DNA of 63,156 nt, counting the filler. It is 12 parts of 12 records of this genome, joined end to end, with 100 filler letters (N's around TTAATTAATTAA, not from the genome) between each part and the next. Parts side by side here need not be neighbours in the genome. Positions count along the whole stretch, not along the records: positions 50,964 to 56,470 come from SRR7504441_22834; 11 more parts are not named here. One strand, 5' to 3'. The translations under genes and the position numbers were made by a program. Of this stretch, positions 4,457-56,470 are shown in pieces (position 1 is the first letter of the stretch; the number at the start of each line of letters is the position of its first letter). The notes beneath the pieces were generated by a model that was given only the letters and a program-made list of their open reading frames with translations, did not search any database and was not told the DNA's origin.

Positions 4457-4556
4457 NNNNNNNNNNNNNNNNNNNNNNNNNNNNNNNNNNNNNNNNNNNN
4501 TTAATTAATTAANNNNNNNNNNNNNNNNNNNNNNNNNNNNNNNNNNNNNNNNNNNN
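4457..4556. other. Artificial contig linker
   Basis: N-run + TTAATTAATTAA + N-run, 100 nt. Confidence 0.99.
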
Positions 4557-6264
4557 GACTGGCCTGGACGCGGCCGTGGAGGAGGCCCTGTGCGCCTATG
4601 GACGCGAGGGCCCAATGTACATCGCCGACCACGTTGACGCGCTGGCCGCTGGGCAGCGCCCGTCCCTCTTCCTTGTGCCGGGGCTCGAGGCCTCGCCCGG
4701 ATGACGTCAGCCCGGAGCAGCCGCTCCAGCAGGAATGGGACGTCATCCGGGCCGAGTTCGAGCAGCTGCTCCGGGCTGACGTCATCCGGGCTGAGGCCGT
4801 CCCCATCCGGCGCGGCGTGCAAGGCCAGTGGGCGACGTTGGCGCTGCTCGAGGAGGGCGAGTGGCATCAGGCGCACTGCGCGCTGTGCCCCAGGACCTGC
4901 GCGCTGCTCGAGCAGCTGCCCCTCTGCGACTGCAGCCTTGGGACGGTGTGTTTTAGCATCTTTGGACCAGAGACTCGGGTGGCCCCTCACTGTGGGGTGA
5001 CCAACGCCAAGCTGAGAGGCCAGTTGGCGCTGGTTTGCCCTGCCGGTCCCGGCTGCAGCCTCCGTTGCGACCAGAAGACCCACAGCTGGCGGGCGGGCGG
5101 GGAGGCAGTGCTGATCGACGACTCGTTCGCGCACACGGCCCAGAACAGCACCGGGCAGGAGGAGGCCTGGCTTCTGCTGGACCTCTGGCATCCGCAGCTC
5201 TCGTCCACTGCGACTCAGAACATCAGAGCCGCCTTCCAGCGCACTCCAGCCCCCGCCCGGCCAGCTGTGCGGCGAGCGGTGCTCCAGAACAACCGTGGGC
5301 TGCTCGAGTACCTCCTGAGCTGCCTGCCCGCGGCCCAGCTGGCCATTGCAAGCAGGGTCTGCCTCGCCTGGTGCCAGGCAGCGCACGACGACCTGCTCTG
5401 GGCACCGCTGTGCCAGGCCGATTTCGGTCGGGACCGTATCCGAGCGGCGCCGCCCGAGGGCGAGTGGATCCGGGAGTACCGCAGGCTGCATCTGTTGCAA
5501 TTCTCTGAATGCCGAGTGGGCCGGAAGGAGTGGGAAGCGCACTATGGCAGCGGGGCTGGAAGCGCTCGGTTGGTTAATGTGGTGCTAGTCGGAGACTCCG
5601 GGGTGGGCAAGTCCAGCTTCGCGCTTCGGTTTGTAGACGACATGTTCGTGGACGACATGGTCGACATTTCTGTTATTGGGGTCGATTTCAAGGTGCGCTG
5701 CGTGCAGTGTGCAGGCGCTGATGTCGCTCTACGTGTATGGGTGCGCACCGATGGCCTGAGCGTGCTGTAACTAGATGGCATGTGCAGGATCTGCTTAATG
5801 AGAGTGCGCGCTTCCGGAGAATCAACTATGCATACTACAGGATGGCACATGTGTTGCTGTTCGTGTATGATATTACCGACCGACGGTCGTTTGATAACTT
5901 AATCAGTTACGCCAGAATGGCTATTCAGTATGCAAACCATTCGCGTCCACCGGCTGTGGCCCTGGTTGGTGCCAAGCAGGATCTGCATAGCAAGCGGTGT
6001 GTCAGCCACGAGGAGGGGGCTGCCTTTGCGCTGCAGCTTCAGGGTTACCTGGCTGACGAGTGGCCGGAGACCGCTGGCAACGAAGTGTGGTTCGGTGAGG
6101 TGTCGAGCAAGCTTGGCCATGGGCTAGATCCGCTGTTGGCATCGATCATTTCCGAGGTGGTCTTGCTCCGCGGCCTTACTAACGAGGAAGGGAGCAATCC
6201 CGGGGTGGATTTAAGACCTATGGACAAGAAGGACAACACGTGCAAAACTTGCATTGTCTCCTAG
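4557..6264 (+). CDS. Fusion: Asp/Asn beta-hydroxylase-like domain + F-box + Rab/Ras-like GTPase (5' partial, apparent frameshift near 4700)
   Basis: AspH-like motifs QRPSLFLVPGL, PHCGVTNAKLR, DDSFAH, LDLWHP; F-box LLEYLLSCLPAAQL..ASRVCLAW...DDLLW; G1 GDSGVGKS, IGVDFK; intron 5741-5787 (GT-AG); then YYR, YDITDRRSF, AKQD, EVSSK and C-terminal CIVS. Confidence 0.85.
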
Positions 6265-8260: not shown

Positions 8261-8360
8261 NNNNNNNNNNNNNNNNNNNNNNNNNNNNNNNNNNNNNNNN
8301 NNNNTTAATTAATTAANNNNNNNNNNNNNNNNNNNNNNNNNNNNNNNNNNNNNNNNNNNN
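8261..8360. other. Artificial contig linker
   Basis: N-run with TTAATTAATTAA. Confidence 0.99.
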
Positions 8361-47026: not shown

Positions 47027-48131
47027 TCATTCCAGTTTGTCCAAGCCAAGCTCCTTCAGATGCTCCGCCAACTCCGGGTCCCCGCCCGCCTCGGTGAACT
47101 CCCGGATCGCTTTCTTGGCCGCATCCTTGTCAAAAGCAGACACACAGTCATACCTGCCTCCGCTCAGCCAGCTCAGCTGGCAAGGCTCACCCTTTATTCT
47201 TCAAATGCGCAGCAATCTGATTCGAGTTCTGGCCCTGCCGCCGGCTGGTCTCGGCCTCGTGCTTCTTGACCAGCTGCTCCAGCTTGTTCGGCTTTGAGGC
47301 AGCAGCCGGTCGCCAGCCGGGCTCGCCTTCCTTTGGTGGAGACATCGCTTTGCTGTTGTCAAATTTGGAGCCCCCGGCCGGCTTGTCCGCCTGGCGCGCC
47401 GGCGGTTCGGGCTTGCTGGCTTTCGGCCTGGCGCGCGGCCTCTGCCGGCCCTCGAGCAGGTCTATGCACGCACTGCTCCTTTTCTTGTGCGCGTAATCCA
47501 GCGCTGTCACGTTATTCTTACCCCGCAGGAACCTGTCGGCACCCCGGTCGAGCAGCAGCTCGACAACGTCCAGCTTGTTCTTGCACGCGGCCAGCATCAG
47601 CGCGGTCTGCCCCATCTTCTCCCGGTCGTCGACCCCCACCCCAGCGTCCAGCAGCACCTCGGCAGCTGCCGCGTGTCCGTTGAGGGCGGCGAAGTGCAGC
47701 CCGGTGTAGTCTGCCATGTCGCGCTGGAGGACGTTGCACCCGCTCTTGATCAGCATCTTGGCCGCCCCGGTTCGGCCCTTCATCGCGGCGTAGTGCAGCG
47801 GAGTCATCTTGGCCATATCAGTCGCGTCCAGCGCCGCCCCGCGTTGGATAAGATACTGGAGCACCTCCATGCTGTTGTGCTGCGCCGCAAAGTGGATTGG
47901 CTGCTTCTTCACACTGTGCGCCAGCACGTCGAGCGCGGCCCCCTGAGCCAGCGCGGCCTGCACCATCGGCAGATCGTTTGTCTCGGCCCCGTGCACCAGC
48001 TGCTGCACCGCCGCCACTGCCCGGCGGCGTCTGGCGCTCCGGACCGCCCGGTAGGTCATGTAGGCCGTCAGCGCCAGCGCCGCCCCGATGCACGGGTAGA
48101 GCATCTCGCTGCTCCCAAGGTAGTACTCCAT
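47027..48131 (-). CDS. Ankyrin-repeat protein with N-terminal membrane anchor
   Basis: PIHFAA, TPLHYAA, TGLHFAA, TALMLAA, TALDYA; last exon after an intron ends ELGLDKLE*. Confidence 0.88.
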
Positions 48132-48281
48132 GCCGCGATGACGAGCAGACGTGCGATGCCCTCGGCTCGAGCCCCAGGATTTTTTTTCCGGGGAGCTGTG
48201 CGGCGCTGTGCCGGTGGCGACCCGCACTGATCTGGGCCACCTCTGCCAGCAGTTTCTCGCTGGCGGCCTCCACGGCCGAGC

Positions 48282-49268
48282 ATGAGTGGTGAGCGCCCGC
48301 CCGCCGCTCCGGCGTCGGCTCTCGCCTTCACCTGCGACGCGTCGGATCACTGCGAGACAAGCCAGGCCGCGTACGCAGACATTGCGCCGATCGTGGACTT
48401 TGTGGTCGGCGGCAAGACCAAGCGGCCGTCTCTGGAGGTCTACGACCCGTACTACTGCCAGGGCGGCGCTGTCCGGCGACTCAACGCTCTCGGATTTGGG
48501 CGCGTGTACAACCGGAACGAGGACTTCTACAAGGCCATAAAGACCCAGCGGACCCCGGCGCACGATGTGCTTCTGAGCAACCCACCGTTCTCGGCGGACC
48601 ACATCCGCCGGGCCGTGCATTTTGCGTGTGCCCAGAAGAATAAGAAGGACAAGGCGCGCAGTATGCGGCGGCGGCCCTGGTTCCTGCTGCTGCCCAACCA
48701 CGTGTACTGCTCGGACTGGTTTCCCGAAATGATGCAGCGCCACGGAGAGCAGCCAATGTACTTATGCCCACGGTCGGGCAGATATCACTTTGACTCGCAG
48801 TACGACCTCGGGAAAGGCAGCGGATCTGGCCAGAAGGAGCAAGCGCGTCGAGCCAGCAGTGCTCGAGGCAGCAGCACCGAGGCGAGGGTTTGCCCATTCC
48901 CGACGCTGTGGTACATTGGAGGCCTCGGGGAAACAGTGCGTGCGGATCTTGTGCAATGGTTCGGGTCCGACGATGGCCGTGCGGCTCACGGAGATACGTC
49001 GACGCTGGCAGCCTCTACTGAGGAGCTGCCAAAGCGCATCCGGAAGCTCGAGCGGTATGCAAAGAAGAAGGGACGCAAAAGCAAGGGTAGGGGCAAAGAG
49101 GACGAGAAGAAACGGCAGCCGAGATTGGGCCAGCTGCAGCGGCAGCAAATTGCGAATAGCGGCAAGCCGGCAGAGAAGGGAAAGAGGAGTGTACCAACGG
49201 CAGGCGATGGCGACGGGAGGCAAAGGAAGTGGAAGAGAAGGAAGAGCAACAACGGGGTTTGCTCTTGA
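48282..49268 (+). CDS. NPPF-motif amino (N6-adenine-like) methyltransferase with basic tail
   Basis: DHCET, VYDPYYCQG (motif I), EDFY, DVLLSNPPF (motif IV), FLLLP, CPFPTLWY; Lys/Arg-rich C-terminus. Confidence 0.75.
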   Translation: MSGERPPAAPASALAFTCDASDHCETSQAAYADIAPIVDFVVGGKTKRPSLEVYDPYYCQGGAVRRLNALGFGRVYNRNEDFYKAIKTQRTPAHDVLLSNPPFSADHIRRAVHFACAQKNKKDKARSMRRRPWFLLLPNHVYCSDWFPEMMQRHGEQPMYLCPRSGRYHFDSQYDLGKGSGSGQKEQARRASSARGSSTEARVCPFPTLWYIGGLGETVRADLVQWFGSDDGRAAHGDTSTLAASTEELPKRIRKLERYAKKKGRKSKGRGKEDEKKRQPRLGQLQRQQIANSGKPAEKGKRSVPTAGDGDGRQRKWKRRKSNNGVCS

Positions 49269-50963: not shown

Positions 50964-51087
50964 ACGGGAACGCCATTAAATTTTGTCCTCACCTGCCACA
51001 CAACTTGGTGGCAACTGAACGAGGTGGTTGGTAGCGCATCGACGGCCTTGCACGAGGCCGCAGTGCAACCGATCGCCGACGTGTGCA

Positions 51088-54000
51088 ATGGGCTCATCGA
51101 GCTCCAGCTCGGCCGCCGACGGCTCGCAGCTGTCGGTGGACACGTGCGTCGGGCTTACTGACAGCCTGCAGCGGTGCCAGTCGACAGATCTCGGGCCCGG
51201 CCCGAGCCAACCGTCGGCTGGCCCCGGCGAGATTGCCAGCGGGCAGCTGAGCAAGATGGTGAAGGCCAGGCTCTCGCTGCTCGCCTGGGACGGGGGGAGC
51301 CCGGCCGCGGTGGACGCGCTGGTCCAGCAGGGGCTAGACTGCTCTGGGGAGCTCGGGGCCAGCTGCCTGCGGTCGGCGGCGGCGGCCGGACACAGCGGGG
51401 TGGTTCAGGGGCTGCTGGCGCACAGGGCGGCCCAGTTGCCGGACGATCAGGGCCGCGGGCCGCTCCAGCTGGCGATGCTGCACAAGCACCCGAGCTGCGT
51501 GGCGCTGCTGCTGTCGGCCAACCGGCAGCCCTTAGCGGCCGCGTGCGAGGCTGAGGACGAGGCCGGGGCTGAAGCTCCGGAGGCGCTGGCGGTGGGCTGG
51601 CTGGACATCTGCAAGCACCTGGCGGCCAGCTCGCTGGATCACGTCAACGGAATGCAGTTAGCTCCGAGTGGACTAGTCTGCCGGCAAAGCCAGTTCTTTG
51701 GGCACCAGTGGGTGCATCCGTCACACAGCACCGCCGACCCATTCGAGGCATACAAGCAGCGGTATGTGGCCAGCCCGGAGCCCGACGAGCAGCTGCGCAA
51801 GGCTCCCGACGGCCAGATGCGCTCACGGGCCGAATTTGTGGCTGCGCACGGTGGGGTGGCCGAGTGGTGCGCTGCTGCACCGACCGAATGGATGGTGGAC
51901 GTGTTTGACGGCCGAAGGGTCCAACTGGCCAAGGTCTGGGACATAAAGGTGCGGGACGGCTCGCCTCAGACCTCGCTGGCGCGGCTGCGCGGCACAGTCC
52001 GTGGCGAGACGGTGGCTCAGCTGCTCGGGAAGATGTTTGAGGCGTATGGTCCGCGGCCTTGCCTCGGCGAGGAGTCCGCGAGTGGCCGGTGGGAGTGGCT
52101 GAGCTTTGACGAGGTGCATCGGACAGTGGCCGGGGTGGGCGCGGCCCTAAGAGCGCTCGGGCTGAAGCCAGGCCAGTTCGTTGGGCTAGTGGCGCACAAC
52201 TCACGAGCTCACGTGCAGCTCATCCTCGGGCTGCTGCTGGGTGGCTTTGTGGTTGTGCCGCTCTCGTTGCACCTAACGGACGAGCATGCACTGGGCATCA
52301 TAGACGAGGCCGAGCTAGCTGTGGTATTCGCCTCGGAGGCGATGCGCCCGACCTACGAACGGCTCGTCCGGCAACACCGGCAGCGGACTGGCGACTCATG
52401 CCAGCTGGTTAGCTGTCTGGGGCATCCGAGCGAACTCGAGGCTTGGATTGCGGCCACCGGCGGCCGTCCAACCATGCCAACACAGCCAACTCGCACGGCG
52501 CCGCCGGCCACCACCCTGCTCCAGGGCACGCTTCAGCATCCGTTGCTCACCGATGCGCGGCCGGCCCCGTTTACTCTCCGACTGGTGACGCCTTTGATGT
52601 CGTCTGCGGGGGGCTGGATGCAGACGCGAGACCATCTCGGGATGAATCTGCACCGCACTTGCTCGGGCGGCGGCGATCCATTGTGTGACGGCGGGGCAGT
52701 CGGGCGGTGGCAGGCGCTAGGGCAGATTGAGGATGTGGCAGTCGAGGTGTGGCACCAGGACGGAGGCACAGTACGAGTGCTGGTCTCCAACGTCTCAGGC
52801 CAACTGCCTACCGTGCTCTCGTGTGATCAGGCCATGCTCGTCCAAACTGAGCATGCTGCGTGTCTCGGCCCGACGGCGGGATCGGTGCACCAAGCCGGCC
52901 GTCCGGGTGGGAGCTTTCAGCTTGAGCCGTTTGATGGAGGCAAGCTTGGCCAGCCCTGGCGATGCATCCATGGCGGGCTGCTAGAGGCCAATAGCAGCGA
53001 GCTGGTCATGGCCTGTGCCGTCTGCAACAAGCCAGTGCAGCCCGGAGCCGGGCTGGCTGGCTGTTGCCCCCGCTGCACTGCAGTTGATGAGTTTTTCCGG
53101 CCTCACGTCTGTCCACACTGCGAGCAGGCGGCCCCGCGATGCCCTGGTGGCCACGGACTCGCCCAGACAATCGTTGGCAAGCTGCATGCCATCCAATGCA
53201 ATGTCTGTGCCGCGCCTCTGCGTTCGGGCGCCACGGCTTTGGGCTGTCTCGTGTGTAACTTTGACGTTTGTCGAGAGTGCGCTGAGTGCCCTACTAGCAT
53301 TGGCCCACTGAAGAAGCACGTCATCGACATGAAGAGCGGATCACAGCCAGTTCTGATCAAATATACCAGTGGCAGTACAGGTCGCCCCAAAGGTGCAATT
53401 GTGACCGATGCAAGCTTCCTTTATCAACTGCAGAAGGCAGTAAATCTTTCAGAGAGCGCGGACTCTTCCGGAGTTGCCATATGTGACGAGCCTCTGAGTG
53501 TTTCGTCTGCATGCCGGAATATCCTGGTTGGGCTGCTAAACGGAGGCCGGCTGGCAGTGTACAGTGAGCTTTCCAGAGTATTTGAGGTCGCAAAGGCAGT
53601 AGGGCCCACAGGCATGTCTGCTGTGCCACAGGTGGCTTGCTCAGTCTCAGCCTGCACCTGCTTAATATATTGGACAGGTGTGGGCAACCTTGTACAAGCA
53701 ATATCAAGCCCGCATTCAGGCTGGAGAGGACCAATTAGACCTCGACGAAGAGTTTCGGGACGCGCTTGGGCCGCGCTGTCTGTCACTTAACTGTGGTGGG
53801 GCTACACCAATGCCACTCGTACAGGCCTGGTTGAAGCGAGTCTTTTCGCAATGCTGGGTGACAGAGAACTATGGCAGTACGGAAGCTGGAGGGATTACAA
53901 ACAGTTCGGAGGACTTGGATGGTGTTATCCAGGATGGCGTGTCAGTCAAGCTGGTCGATTCAGGAGATTACAAGTCGACAGATCAACCGAATCCGAGGGG

Positions 54001-56396
54001 CGAGATTCTGGTGAACCCAACATAGCCGTGTCTTAGATATAATTAACTATGAGGGGTTTAGCCTGTTCTGAGCTGTCGACCAGGTCAAGTCGCCCCAGAT
54101 GGTGCATGCATACCTCAACCGGCCTGATCTGACCATGGAAGCCTGGGACCCTGATGGCTACTTCCACACTGTGCGTGGCTGCATTTAGACTGCAGATCTG
54201 AGTGCACATTCAGGGAGATATTGGTGAGATGATTGGACTCGATCCGGAGCAGCGGGCGGAACTTAGTGAGCTCGAGGCGGAGCTCATTGCTTGGAAGAAA
54301 GGCGAGATCGAGATTGTCAACGACCAGCTTGATCCCAAGCAAACTCGCCTCAAGAACCTCCAGAAGCTGTCTCGACGGATCAAGGTGATTGATCGCATCA
54401 AGAACATTTTCAAGCTGTCAAATGGAGAATGGGTCTCGCCCGAGAACGTTGAAGCTGCTTACACTGGCGAGTGCCGCAGCATCGCACAGCTGATGATACA
54501 CAGCACTTCTCGTCACTCCCGCTGCATTGCTATCGTTGCACCAACGACAGAACTGGCTACAGAGCCGCAGGTGCTAAGCGAGATGAAGGCTACCGCCGAA
54601 AAGCTCCAGACCTTGCGACACTTTGAGGTACCAGTTGCTGCCTTCGTCACAAGCGAGCCATTTACGATCGAGAACGGCTGTCTGACTAAGACTAGCAAGC
54701 TTTGCCGTCACGAAATTCGCGGTGCGCTTTGCTGCATAAGTGCCATATTCTGAGGGTGGGGTCAGCCAAGTATAAATCTGAGATACATGAGCTACTGCAG
54801 CGAACGACAGAGATGGAGGCCGAGGTGGAAAGTGCGCGCACAGCACTGATCAAGCGAGTGTTGAGGCAATGTCTCGAACCTGGGAATTTGCCAACATCTG
54901 AGCACTTGGAGCTGTGGCGCAGTCTCGAATGGGCTTCGATTCATGTGATCCAAAATGCCCACATTATTCGATGCGAGTTCGATGTCGATCTTCCGATTGC
55001 ACAATTATACGAGGTAAAAGAGGACCTACCAAAACTTGTCGAGCTGATAAGACTCATACGTAGCGGTGGTAGTATCGAGGAAATTTCCATAGACTGGGCT
55101 CAAGAGTGCTTGCTGCCTGCAACAAGCAGCTGGCCCACCGCAGCTCCAGATGCTGTTCCGCGCGGCTCTTATGCGCTTCTCACCGGGGCCACGGGTTTTC
55201 TTGGGGCAGCGCTACTTCGAGAGTTGCTCGAGAGATACCCGAAAATGAAACTCAAATGTCTCGTGAGAACTAGGGACTCGTCATCAGCGGATAAAAGATT
55301 GATGTGTGCACTTCAGCAGCGGGGCCAGTGGACTGAAATGGTAGCTACTGCAGCTTCCGATGGTCGACTGCAGGCAGTGGAGGCCCAGCTCGGTGAGGAG
55401 CGATTCGGTCTAGACGCGCATGCATTTGAAAATTTAGCCTGCAGTGTCCAGACAGTCTTTCATTGTGGCAGCTGGGTGGACCACATTGCTGGTTACAAAA
55501 CACTCGAGCCAGTGAACGTCGGCAGTGTCATGCAGATCATTCAGATGGCCCAGGTGCGCGGCCAGCAAAAGCCGCTGCGTGTGCATTATGTTTCTACCAT
55601 CAGCGTCATCCAGAAGGGTCTTCCAGAATATACCTTGACTGAGCCAAGACAGCTGCAGGCCCGCGGTGGATACGTCCAATCCAAGTGGGTAGCCGAGTGC
55701 CGTCTTCGACAGGCCGCCGCCCAAGGGCTCTGCTGTGTGTGCAGTATTGTGCGGCCTGGAATGCTCACCCCTGACACTCGCTCCGGCGCTGCCAACATGG
55801 CTGACTGGATCATTCGGTTCCTCACTGGGTCGATCATGGCCGGTGGCTACTTGGTAGACGGGGTAGATCCAGTCATGCACCTCACCCCAGTTAACCATGC
55901 AGCAGCCGCAACTGTGCTTTTTGCCGAAATCTCCGGGGCGGCGCACGTGCCTTGCCCGTTCCACATCCCAACCACTGTACAGATCAAGACGCGCCAGCTG
56001 CTTGCTATGGTAGCTGGATCTTCTGAGCTGTGCGGCCGGCGGGTGAGGGCTCTTGAGAGCGAGGCCTGGCGCGTGGTTATGGACCAGCTGCCGTGCACCA
56101 ACCCGCTATACCCGTTCCGGGATAGATTCGTGCGCGGGCTTGGTGGACTTGAAGGTGGCTGCGCTGAGGAATCTGTCGCAGCACTCGAGCAGCACTGTGC
56201 TGCTGACGGGTTGCCATGGGCACACAGTCGAGGGTACACCAAAGAGCAGGTGGACTTAATTGTGCGTTACATTGTGATCAACTCGGACATTAGCGACACG
56301 GTGCTCATGAGCAGAACACGCAGCATAACTGGCCACGCGGAATGTCAATGGTTCTCTCGTACACAGTCTAGTGAGTCTACACACAATCTACGATAG
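51088..56396 (+). CDS. Carboxylic-acid-reductase-like adenylation-thiolation-reductase enzyme with ankyrin-like N-terminus and Zn-finger insert
   Basis: A motifs YTSGSTGRPKG, ENYGSTE, DGYFHT|GDIG, IDRIKNIFKLSNGEWVSPE, NGCLTKTSKL; T-like EWASI...EFDVDLPI; R domain LLTGATGFLG and GGYVQSKWVAE; introns 53632-53677, 54011-54083, 54171-54213, 54722-54765. Confidence 0.9.
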
Positions 56397-56470
56397 CTTG
56401 AGTCGATATTGAGTCGATAATACTATGATTGTCTTGTTAATTACACTGTATGGTGATAGACGGTTTAATA

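Follow-up and report, generated by a model that had tools for sequence, protein, structure and literature searches.

A spliced protist gene for a putative multidomain reductase related to bacterial carboxylic acid reductases

Results and Discussion

A five-exon gene from a marine protist encodes a 1,700-amino-acid protein in which two to three ankyrin repeats and a 28-residue module are followed by an adenylation (A) domain with two inserts, a divergent carrier (T) domain, and a thioester reductase (R) domain. The gene structure, the domain identities, the homology to carboxylic acid reductases (CARs) along A-T-R, the catalytic Ser, Tyr and Lys, the ATP motifs, and the placement in a separate clade are all observed. 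We assign a probability of roughly 0.6 to the reading that this is a functional multidomain reductase, one of a clade specific to protists and allied to the type I CARs of bacteria. The protein is most likely an ATP/NADPH-dependent reductase that converts acids to aldehydes (or alcohols), and its substrates are probably aliphatic acids.

Gene structure

The window, meaning the entire 63,156-nucleotide stretch that was analysed, consists of 12 unlinked contigs joined by N/TTAATTAATTAA linkers. Because these contigs are concatenated, sequence beyond the 5.5-kb contig that bears the gene (50964-56470) is uninformative on its linkage. The first-pass annotation had placed a spliced eukaryotic A-T-R gene at 51088..56396, and this interval indeed runs exactly from the ATG to the stop codon of a single gene with Pfam AMP-binding and NAD_binding_4 domains (Table 1). 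An in-frame stop codon lies upstream of the ATG at 51016-51018. The four introns (46, 73, 43, and 44 nt) each have the form GTG...CAG (GT-AG class), and all four exon junctions align to homologues without gaps. By BLASTP, the spliced product matches the relative P0010 in a single HSP (query 297-1678, 35% identity, 1507 columns).

Exon 1 remains open for 848 codons, an outcome with a chance of ~4e-12 for the same base composition, and each 300-nt block has a higher GC3 than GC2. Of 14 exonic differences from metagenome contigs, 10 affect the third position of a codon (p 0.004) and 9 leave the amino acid unchanged, a bias that points to purifying selection on the gene.

Table 1. Features of the gene and its protein product, with positions in the window
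Feature	Position	Strand	Basis or content
Exon 1 (aa 1-848)	51088..53631	+	Single ORF; ATG, N-terminal extension, A domain first half with insert
Ankyrin repeats (aa 65-145; about two canonical plus cap)	51280..51522	+	Pfam Ank_2
28-aa 'RKAPDG..EF..GG..EW' module (aa 236-264), unnamed repeat unit	51793..51879	+	P0219-repeat HMM
A domain, N-terminal part (aa 307-461)	52006..52470	+	Pfam AMP-binding stretch aa 333-442; aligns with all homologues
~290-aa insert within A domain, upstream of YTSGSTG (aa 462-750)	52471..53337	+	Homologue alignment
Two Cys-rich ZZ/DC1-like zinc-finger units (aa 643-734)	53014..53289	+	Weak C1_2 match, Cys/His pattern
ATP-binding motif KYTSGSTGRPKG (aa 758-769)	53359..53394	+	Invariant across homologues
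DEPLSVSS (aa 800-807), CAR/acyl-CoA synthetase P-(M/L)-(S/A)-H position	53485..53508	+	Alignment; Val805 in place of His
Exon 2 (aa 849-959)	53678..54010	+	A domain core including ENYGSTEAG; Pfam AMP-binding
Exon 3 (aa 960-988)	54084..54170	+	A domain ...YLNRPDLT...GYFHT, from sequence reading; junctions match homologues
Exon 4 (aa 989-1158, final codon split)	54214..54721	+	A domain C-terminal subdomain; CAR matches in PDB and NCBIfam
49-aa helical-looking hinge insert between A subdomains (aa 995-1043)	54232..54378	+	Unique to this gene
Exon 5 (aa 1158-1700 and stop)	54766..56396	+	ORF; linker, T and R domains, C-terminal tail
Carrier (thiolation) domain (aa 1178-1256)	54825..55061	+	AF2 fold, didomain superposition
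Ser1215, presumed phosphopantetheine site, context EWASI	54936..54938	+	Invariance
Thioester reductase domain (aa 1293-1663): TGATGFLG, Tyr1460, Lys1464	55170..56282	+	NAD_binding_4
R-T-x-S motif, RTRS (aa 1674-1677)	56313..56324	+	Near C-terminus also in 8 of 12 relatives

Relationship to bacterial CARs

By sequence, the closest named relatives across the full A-T-R length are bacterial type I CARs (EC 1.2.1.30; references Nocardia iowensis 5msc, Segniliparus rugosus 5msp, and Mycobacterium marinum 5mso; NCBIfam model NF041592), which agrees with the CAR-type architecture proposed initially. The relative P0011 aligns to the Nocardia CAR 5msc as one stretch (aa 526-1274, E 3.6e-77), and its top four PDB sequence matches are all bacterial CARs. 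NF041592 is the best NCBIfam model both for P0011 (389 bits, as a single match covering model positions 29-1015) and for P0132 (348 bits), and exons 1, 2, 4, and 5 of the window gene match it collinearly, with all NF041592 scores falling far under the 1300-bit cutoff, at less than one third of the curated value. Among 596 billion bases of prokaryote genomes, only five loci, all from Actinomycetota, are A+T+R relatives at E <1e-70.

The window protein shares with type I CARs the A-T-R order, collinearity over the full length, an ACSL/FadD9-type A domain with its C-terminal subdomain motifs, the carrier Ser, TGxxGxxG, the reductase Tyr/Lys, and a PCP-R superposition at Z 33. In contrast, identity is only ~26%, the gene is eukaryotic, contains introns, and falls in a separate clade in the A and R trees, and the protein has the added ankyrin part, 28-aa module, zinc-finger insert, and hinge insert, carries Val for the His of P-M-S-H, and has an R domain nearer the MxaA type.

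A protist family

About 20 uncharacterised eukaryote-type relatives have the same A-T-R core (among them P0010-P0014, P0130-P0136, P0138, P0164, and P0194, from MMETSP, EukProt, JGI, ENA, and Logan), at 33-40% identity to the window protein over 890-1,500 aligned columns. The window protein and its relatives form one clade with an SH-aLRT of 99 for either domain (12 relatives for A, 11 for R), and both trees set the family apart from actinobacterial CARs, with the backbone unresolved. A literature search found no published study of this small protist enzyme group. The clade is distinct and apparently undescribed, as had been considered possible from the DNA. Like the window protein, the relatives have Val for His and the invariant Ser, and several members carry the zinc-finger insert. 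Unlike it, they are without the ankyrin repeats and the 28-aa module, 12 aligned rows are without the 49-aa hinge insert, and most have Asp rather than Ala before the Ser.

Among the entries listed in the sections of PMC5826065 drawn on here, characterised CARs are type I from actinobacteria and types II and III from fungi, and an A-domain stretch is described as present in type I and missing in types II-IV. Fungal CARs (types II-IV) and ATRR, an A-T-R1-R2 glycine betaine reductase, are eukaryotic A-T-R reductases like the window protein, and the R domain of Neurospora crassa NcCAR (8aep) superposes on that of the window protein with Z 31.8. However, the fungal rows group with NRPS-like A domains, apart from the protist family, and ATRR has a second R domain that the window protein does not.

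Adenylation domain

The A domain (Pfam AMP-binding, E 3.7e-31) is of the ACSL/FadD9 type, as judged from its sequence, and contains YTSGSTGxPKG, ENYGSTE, HTGD, FKLSNGEWV, and the A10 Lys. Its N-terminal part is modeled by AF2 at pLDDT 83-95, and NCBIfam long-chain-fatty-acid--CoA ligase models match this region of exon 1. The ACSL/FadD long-chain acyl-CoA synthetases have the same type of A domain, but they are stand-alone enzymes without T and R, and they keep a His that the protist family lacks. The sole NCBIfam match of exon 2 (E 1.3e-8) and of exon 4 (E 1e-16) is NF041592, and exon 4 matches exclusively four bacterial CAR chains among PDB sequences (E 1e-13 to 5e-10).

This His is present in the three actinobacterial CARs and two FACS-type ligases displayed and is aligned in one fungal row, whereas the window protein and all four family rows displayed have Val. 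According to PMC5826065, alanine in place of the A-domain His abolishes the activity of Neurospora CAR. Because a His essential to CARs has been replaced, the handling of substrates may differ from that of CARs.

The ~290-aa insert is common to P0010, P0012, P0013/P0130, P0135, and P0131 and missing in P0011 and P0014. It matches no Pfam family except for a weak C1_2 hit, ESM Atlas yields nothing usable for it, and AF2 models aa 462-640 at pLDDT <45. The C1_2 hit falls on the two zinc-finger units (E 0.0025, 18.6 bits, under the cutoff of 26; AF2 pLDDT 60-77), whose Cys/His pattern is kept in P0010, P0012, and P0013, and the homologue P0133 clears both Pfam C1_2 (36.2 bits) and ZZ (26 bits). 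The 49-aa hinge insert is missing from all five homologues aligned and from all 12 family members in the tree alignment, and sequence reading revealed no in-frame GT..AG pair able to excise it. The A domain must rotate about the hinge that bears this insert, which we count against our preferred reading. We also count against it the Val in place of His, the missing Pfam match of the carrier and the Ala before its Ser, the low NF041592 scores, the placement apart from actinobacterial CARs in both trees, the greater closeness of the R domain to MxaA/PKS reductases, and the N-terminal 296 aa, which match no homologue and are modeled at low confidence. The zinc-finger insert, the His-to-Val change, and the failure of the carrier to match its Pfam model go beyond the first-pass annotation.

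Carrier and reductase domains

The segment first described as carrier-like is predicted by AF2 to fold as a carrier bundle with a Ser at the beginning of helix two, and the VIA-align superpositions on two T-R didomains include the segment: 5msp (model 26-507, Z 33.0) and 6vtj (model 23-509, Z 32.2). That description holds for the predicted fold and the family-invariant Ser but not for the Pfam PP-binding model, which gives no match to the segment up to E 10. This Ser is invariant in all 12 aligned sequences, window included, usually in the context WDSI. A pattern search located the motif in 10 listed relatives, of which eight have D immediately before the Ser, while P0132 has N and P0135 has C; the window protein has A there. 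An invariant Ser beside a variable neighbor is the pattern that a functional Ser would leave.

The single R domain matches NAD_binding_4 (Pfam, E 3.6e-47) and scores 199.1 bits on NCBIfam TIGR01746 against a cutoff of 213.35. The AF2 model of T-R (exon 5; mean pLDDT 81.8, pTM 0.79) superposes on CAR PCP-R didomains at Z 33 and on MxaA and PKS TR at Z 38. The best R matches in both sequence and structure are PKS/NRPS terminal reductases, namely MxaA (4u7w/4w4t; E 5e-36, Z 37.8) and a Streptomyces coelicolor PKS TR (8v1x; E 2e-30, Z 38.4), compared with E 4e-17 for CAR reductases and Z 33.3 for the CAR R domain 5msu. However, MxaA and PKS TR terminate assembly lines that include condensation or ketosynthase modules, whereas the R domain here follows a single fatty-acid-type A domain. 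The RTRS motif in the C-terminal tail is a possible phosphorylation site.

N-terminal extension

Ankyrin-like repeats had been read from two strings, and both (aa 89-110 and 122-142) lie within a Pfam Ank_2 match (E 1e-7, 32.8 bits against a cutoff of 27.3). Ank_4 and Ank fall under their Pfam cutoffs on the same protein. ESM Atlas feature matches for the region are exclusively ankyrin clusters (score 0.91), and its AF2 model has paired helices, but at a pLDDT of 45-60. The small module noted earlier (string at aa 236-260) has no Pfam family but is matched at aa 237-264 (E 2e-6) by an HMM built from eight repeats of P0219, an unrelated protist zinc-finger protein. That HMM finds nothing else at E <1 among the family members, the other collected proteins, and the other ORFs of the window. 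The view that ankyrin repeats are unusual for such enzymes is borne out by their absence from all 19 relatives scanned with Pfam, and by this comparison the ankyrin part is a trait of a single gene rather than of the family.

Alternative explanations

Perhaps the carrier is unused, and the protein is instead a fused acyl-CoA synthetase and acyl-CoA reductase that reduces free acyl-CoA to the aldehyde or the alcohol in the manner of fatty acyl-CoA reductases, or else one activity is dead. The missing PP-binding match, the Ala in place of the usual Asp, and the acyl-CoA-synthetase type of the A domain, with its ligase models on exon 1, all fit this view, as does the structural match of the R domain to the plant fatty acyl reductase DPW (7eoz, Z 25.2). 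We nevertheless regard it as unlikely, given that terminal reductases match well above DPW (Z 38 vs 25), that the Ser is invariant beside a variable residue, that the predicted bundle and the PCP-R superpositions span the segment, and that the relative P0138 has a weak PP-binding match (E 5.6e-4). Less probable still is an NRPS-like reductase for an amino-acid- or betaine-like substrate, comparable to Lys2 or ATRR, rather than for fatty or aliphatic acids. The family 'AVSS' aligns at the NRPS 'FDVS' and not at the acyl-CoA synthetase 'SH', an NCBIfam alpha-aminoadipate reductase model matches the R domain (E 7e-39), and a preprint (10.1101/559534) reports ATRR-type genes from some protists. 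Yet the A tree separates the family (support 99) from the NRPS-like/fungal clade that includes Lys2 (P0118), exons 2 and 4 match only the CAR model in NCBIfam, the FKLSxGE(W/F)V of the C-terminal A subdomain is common with CARs, and there is one NAD_binding_4 domain rather than two.

A different doubt concerns whether the ankyrin and module part belongs to the mature enzyme, or whether a downstream start, an undetected intron or gene boundary, or a chimeric 5' end of the contig separates them. None of the 19 relatives scanned shares the ankyrin repeats, aa 1-296 have no homologue match and a low-confidence fold (AF2 pLDDT <60), an open frame of 300 codons would by itself not be unusual for this GC content (P ~9e-5 per start), GC3 within exon 1 drops from 0.90 to 0.54, and none of the metagenome contigs compared spans both the ankyrin repeats and the A domain. 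Set against this, a single frame runs without a stop from the ankyrin part through the module into the A domain, the GC3 drop is gradual, with no step and with GC3 above GC2 throughout, and the Ank_2 and module-HMM matches upstream of the A domain are independent. Furthermore, a contig from another run (X3, 51746-52093) covers the module and the start of A-domain homology, and the N-termini of relatives hold variable protein-binding modules at the same position (WW, DUF4116, ubiquitin, or ZZ/C1_2). A separate N-terminus thus seems improbable to us.

Proposed mechanism

If the protein is a functional CAR-related reductase, as we favor, then its A domain would use ATP to activate a carboxylic acid, most likely aliphatic or fatty, and the acyl group would be moved onto a phosphopantetheine arm at Ser1215. 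The NADPH-dependent reductase, using TGATGFLG, Tyr1460, and Lys1464, would then free an aldehyde, which possibly is reduced on to an alcohol. The ankyrin repeats, the 28-aa module, the ZZ/DC1-like fingers, the 49-aa insert, and the RTxS motif are non-catalytic additions, and from their domain content we infer, much as the first-pass annotation did for protein interactions, that they would most plausibly localise or regulate the enzyme via binding partners.

Gene model and genomic context

The window of 63,156 bases is not a continuous piece of chromosome but is composed of 12 contigs of 3.0-10.5 kb, split by 11 copies of a six-frame stop linker (TTAATTAATTAA) lying between N runs, and as a result genes on other contigs are uninformative on linkage. 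The gene under study resides on a contig of 5,507 bases with a GC content of 0.59. Its four introns of 46, 73, 43, and 44 nt all conform to GTG...CAG, and splicing of the five exons yields a product of 1,700 aa. All four exon junctions are free of gaps in an alignment to five relatives, and BLASTP comparison with P0010, an uncharacterized protist A-T-R protein, returns a single HSP (query 297-1678, subject 450-1868, 35% identity). The first-pass annotation described a spliced eukaryotic A-T-R gene, and this description is borne out by the five exons, the gap-free junctions, and the collinear matches to a carboxylic acid reductase (CAR) model presented below. An in-frame stop precedes the ATG, and because only 124 nt of the contig lie 5′ of this start codon, a further upstream exon is possible. 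We conclude that the gene is real and looks intact, and that it encodes a CAR-like A-T-R reductase which belongs to a small protist clade and bears an unusual set of additions.

Coordinates of features in the window
Feature	Position	Strand	Basis
Linker sites, TTAATTAATTAA six-frame stop linker	4501-4512, 8305-8316 ... 60024-60035 (11 sites)
Gene-bearing contig	50964-56470
In-frame stop upstream of ATG	51016-51018
Stretch of 42 nt 5′ of ATG	51040-51081
Exon 1	51088-53631	+	sequence read against reading frames
Exon 2	53678-54010	+	sequence read against reading frames
Exon 3	54084-54170	+	sequence read against reading frames
Exon 4	54214-54721	+	sequence read against reading frames
Exon 5	54766-56396	+	sequence read against reading frames
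Span covered by a contig of another run	51746-52093
28-aa module	51793-51879
C-terminal R-T-x-S motif	56313-56324
Multi-ankyrin-repeat ORF	47187-48761	-
ORF with beta-hydroxylase, F-box-like, and GTPase parts	4559-5770	+

Elsewhere the window carries ordinary eukaryotic genes. Pfam matches were obtained for 12 of the 31 long ORFs, and these include a protein kinase, an ABC transporter, a cytochrome b5, and an ankyrin protein. The preceding, unlinked contig carries an ORF with multiple, strongly matching ankyrin repeats (Ank_2 E 1.5e-26). Another contig contains an unusual fusion, in which one frame joins an Asp/Asn beta-hydroxylase and an F-box-like domain to the beginning of a Ras-type GTPase domain.

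Relationship to known carboxylic acid reductases

A passage of PMC5826065 assigns the characterized CARs, among at least 25 entries, to type I in actinobacteria and to types II and III in fungi. The window protein is like bacterial type I CARs in its A-T-R order and catalytic motifs. The best NCBIfam model for two full-length protist relatives, P0011 (389 bits) and P0132 (348 bits), is NF041592 (carboxylic acid reductase), which P0011 matches over positions 29-1015 in a single stretch. Exons 1, 2, 4, and 5 of the window gene are collinear on this model (positions 234-329, 355-448, 488-607, and 758-997), with scores of 48, 33, 60, and 88 bits when each piece is scored separately, and exons 2 and 4 matched no other NCBIfam model. 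The curated equivalog cutoff of 1300 bits is missed by a wide margin by P0011, P0132, and the exon pieces. Among PDB sequences, the best four matches to P0011 are all bacterial CARs, and exon 4 matches the same four and no others. The alignment of P0011 to the Nocardia CAR 5msc is a single stretch of approximately 750 aa (E 3.6e-77). A scan of prokaryotes (one genome per species, 185,579 species) recovered 221 confirmed relatives, five of which span the A, T, and R domains at E below 1e-70. These five, at 25-27% identity, are all Actinomycetota (Streptomyces, Nocardia, two Mycobacterium, and one uncultured organism).

The first-pass annotation also proposed A- and R-domain trees against CARs, and we built these with IQ-TREE (quick search, SH-aLRT support only) from rows that we selected ourselves, comprising the window protein, 12 members of the family, the five actinobacterial loci, seven bacterial A-T-R proteins, four fungal proteins, and four stand-alone ligases as the outgroup. 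The A-domain tree unites the window protein with its family in one clade (99), the actinobacterial CARs in another (99), and the NRPS-like and fungal rows in a third (92). This three-way split recurs in the R-domain tree (family 99, CARs 100). Both trees lack resolution in the backbone, and both place the window protein outside the clade of the five actinobacterial rows. They are compatible both with a sister relationship between the family and the actinobacterial CARs and with none. The window protein thus departs from the curated CAR family in score, clade position, and one key residue. In architecture and motifs it is CAR-like, it lies outside the curated family, and its activity, substrate, product, and regulation are predictions only.

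A possibly undescribed subfamily had been suggested at the outset. This suggestion agrees with the distinct clade and with our literature search, in which no description of protist CARs or of ankyrin-CAR fusions was found (subscription journals and preprint supplements lay outside its coverage). A portion of preprint 10.1101/559534 describes an A-T-R1-R2 glycine betaine reductase that is said to occur also in some protists. Unlike this fungal enzyme (ATRR), the window protein has no second reductase; it carries one NAD_binding_4 domain and ends about 160 aa later.

Reductase and carrier domains

The reductase domain is evident from its Pfam match (NAD_binding_4, E 3.6e-47) and from the NADPH motif (T/SGxxGxxG) LLTGATGFLG and the motif GGYVQSKW (Tyr1460 and Lys1464), which are both nearly invariant in the family. 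In the Neurospora CAR (NcCAR), the catalytic R-domain residues are Tyr844 and Lys848, and the carrier Ser595 is essential (PMC5826065). Structural comparison of the R domain (Foldseek, VIA-align) yields the PKS thioreductase 8v1x (Z 38.4), the terminal thioester reductase of MxaA (Z 37.8), as well as CAR reductases (Z 33.3). At the sequence level, the R domain matches MxaA (E 5e-36) more closely than it does the CAR reductases (E 4e-17).

An R-T-x-S motif is present near the C-terminus of the window protein and of 8 of 12 relatives (P0010, P0011, P0012, P0013/P0130, P0132, P0133, and P0136). R-x-x-S is a consensus for basophilic kinases, and the motif may be a phosphorylation site.

The carrier-like segment noted in the first reading of the sequence is upheld by an invariant serine and a predicted carrier bundle fold, but not by Pfam, which finds no PP-binding domain (PF00550) in aa 1159-1312 up to E 10. 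In the five closest relatives, too, precomputed Pfam annotation contains no PF00550; the relative P0138 gives a PP-binding match at E 5.6e-4. Ser1215 is invariant in all 12 aligned sequences. Its context is EWASI in the window protein and WDSI in most relatives, where the residue preceding the serine varies (D, N, or C, versus A in the window protein). The AF2 model of exon 5, made from a 12-row alignment (mean pLDDT 81.8, pTM 0.79), places short helices at residues 44-51, 57-71, 77-83, and 87-98 (pLDDT 74-91) ahead of a Rossmann-type reductase. A carrier-like bundle precedes the R domain in the model, and Ser1215 opens its second helix (57-71). Superpositions on T-R didomains extend back to residues 23-40 of exon 5 and take in the carrier part (5msp, model 26-507, Z 33.0; 6vtj, model 23-509, Z 32.2). 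We regard this segment as a genuine, though divergent, carrier domain, with Ser1215 as the presumed phosphopantetheine site.

An altered and interrupted adenylation domain

Pfam recognizes an AMP-binding domain in the window protein. The protein lacks the A-domain His that is conserved in type I CARs (P-M/L-S-H). At this P-(M/L)-(S/A)-H position it has Val805 (PLSVSS), as Val is also found in all four family rows displayed, whereas His occupies the position in three actinobacterial CARs, two FACS-type ligases, and one fungal relative. By motif position, the missing residue would be the counterpart of NcCAR His237. According to the abstract of PMC5826065, Ala at His237, Glu433, Ser595, Tyr844, or Lys848 abolishes NcCAR activity, and equivalents of Ser595, Tyr844, and Lys848 are present in the window protein.

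Two inserts interrupt this domain. The larger, of about 290 aa (aa 462-750), breaks the A domain upstream of the YTSGSTG motif and carries two CxxC...CxxC...CxxC units in its second half. P0010, P0012, P0013/P0130, P0135, and P0131 have this insert with its Cys pattern, and P0011 and P0014 do not; the doubled pattern is kept in P0010, P0012, and P0013. Within the insert, a weak C1_2 zinc-finger match at aa 701-732 scores 18.6 bits, below the Pfam cutoff of 26, and the ZZ and C1_2 fingers of P0133 exceed their cutoffs. A search of the ESM Atlas with the insert gave no usable match, and the AF2 model of exon 1 (mean pLDDT 54) is too poor for judging either the insert or the ankyrin part. A separate protein, P0141 (1594 aa), consists almost entirely of repeated C1_2/ZZ-like fingers (C1_2 E 3e-50) and matches the second zinc finger of the window protein in 14 stretches.

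The smaller insert, of 49 aa (aa 995-1043), lies at the hinge that joins the A subdomains and is missing from the five relatives and from the 12 family rows in two alignments. We considered whether it might be an unspliced intron and rejected this explanation: the sole GTG donor (54224) leads to a frameshift and a stop with either downstream CAG. "Interrupted" NRPS A domains are known to accept methyltransferase insertions at a similar place. A distinct protist clade offers a case from nature in which an adenylation domain accommodates sizeable insertions.

Ankyrin repeats, the 28-aa module, and the N-terminal fusion

Ank_2 (PF12796) matches aa 65-145 at E 1e-7 and 32.8 bits when aa 1-201 serve as the query, and at 29.1 bits with the whole of exon 1, both above the Pfam gathering cutoff of 27.3; single-repeat ankyrin models score below their cutoffs. 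AF2 predicts paired helices at residues 72-159 at pLDDT 41-61, from an alignment that lacks homologues for the ankyrin part. Ankyrin repeats had been called unusual for A-T-R enzymes, and indeed none of the 19 relatives scanned with Pfam carries them. Conversely, the nine matches to the ankyrin region are plain ankyrin proteins, none with an A or R domain.

The small module quoted in the first-pass annotation (aa 236-264) is a diverged version of a unit measuring about 28 aa, eight copies of which are present in P0219, an unrelated protist zinc-finger protein, and the HMM built from those eight repeats matches the window protein at E 2e-6. This HMM finds nothing at E < 1 in the other proteins compared, family members included, or in the other ORFs of the window, and Pfam has no family for the module. 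MAFFT aligns the module with the conserved pre-A region of the family, yet the module HMM has no match in the relatives, and we rejected the idea that it belongs to that region. P0219 itself (963 aa) bears the unnamed repeat ExRxAPDGxxYTKxEFxEFYGGTxEWDxA eight times between CCCH zinc fingers, and none of its Pfam matches at E 0.001 or better corresponds to this repeat.

We estimate a probability of roughly 85% that the ankyrin part is joined to the enzyme as a true fusion. A single stop-free frame of 848 codons has a chance probability of about 4e-12, although a 300-codon open frame by itself is not rare at the present GC content. GC3 exceeds GC2 in all blocks, and the GC3 drop along exon 1 is gradual. 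Two independent protein-level matches (Ank_2 and the module HMM) lie upstream of the A domain; against this, residues 1-296 have no homologue support and AF2 is unsure in the N-terminal region. Metagenome contigs of 150-535 nt from four runs cover parts of the gene with an identity of about 98-100%. These contigs show 14 exonic differences, of which 10 affect the third codon position (p 0.004) and 9 leave the amino acid unchanged. One contig from another run covers the module together with the start of the A domain, but none of these contigs links the ankyrin region with that domain.

Several other features of the 5′ region were observed. The GC3 fall along exon 1 is strong, from 0.90 to 0.54 in the 5′-to-3′ direction, and later exons range from 0.57 to 0.62. 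The 42-nt stretch just 5′ of the ATG occurs once in the window and recurs in contigs from the sequencing runs X1 and X3 with unlike flanks on both sides, where both contigs run on as CGGCCGAC... beside it. This stretch could represent either a short repeat or a 5′ element common to the organism group. The N-terminal MGSSSS of the window protein resembles an N-myristoylation signal.

Variable front ends among the relatives

When 1.84 billion representatives were scanned exhaustively by HMMER with exon 1 as the query, 3,975 matches reached E 0.001 or better and only nine reached 1e-30 or better. In a word-index search with exon 5, five long AMP-binding plus NAD_binding_4 proteins emerged well ahead of the NRPS/PKS crowd; the sources of the five closest relatives are MMETSP, EukProt, JGI, ENA, and Logan. 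With exon 1, the same kind of search among longer proteins gave NRPS matches on the ATP motif only. With the family alignment it gave only P0011 and P0132, from words in the variable N-terminus, a result that is uninformative on family size.

The Pfam scan of the 19 relatives reveals differing front ends, including WW (P0133 and P0140), DUF4116 (P0134 and P0138), ubiquitin (P0134), and ZZ/C1_2 (P0133) domains. Thus, a variable protein-binding front end is a habit of the family, and the ankyrin repeats with the 28-aa module are the window gene's own version. The ankyrin fusion is probably one among several lineage-specific front ends.

Implications

It is tempting, although at present rather doubtful, to speculate that protists possess an old CAR clade of their own. 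Its members would differ from every characterized CAR: they would have lost the A-domain His on which CARs depend, implying another mode of holding the acid or another substrate class, and would be placed under signaling control through zinc fingers within the A domain, exchangeable N-terminal docking modules (ankyrin in the window gene; WW, DUF4116, or ubiquitin elsewhere), and the C-terminal RTxS. If true, the enzyme would supply aldehydes or alcohols when required and at a specific site in the cell, such as fatty aldehydes or alcohols for lipids.

CARs are sought-after biocatalysts for aldehyde production. A distinct protist clade, in which a key residue is changed and zinc-finger and protein-docking modules are built in, would broaden CAR sequence space, and it would raise the question of what role acid-to-aldehyde chemistry plays in marine protists.
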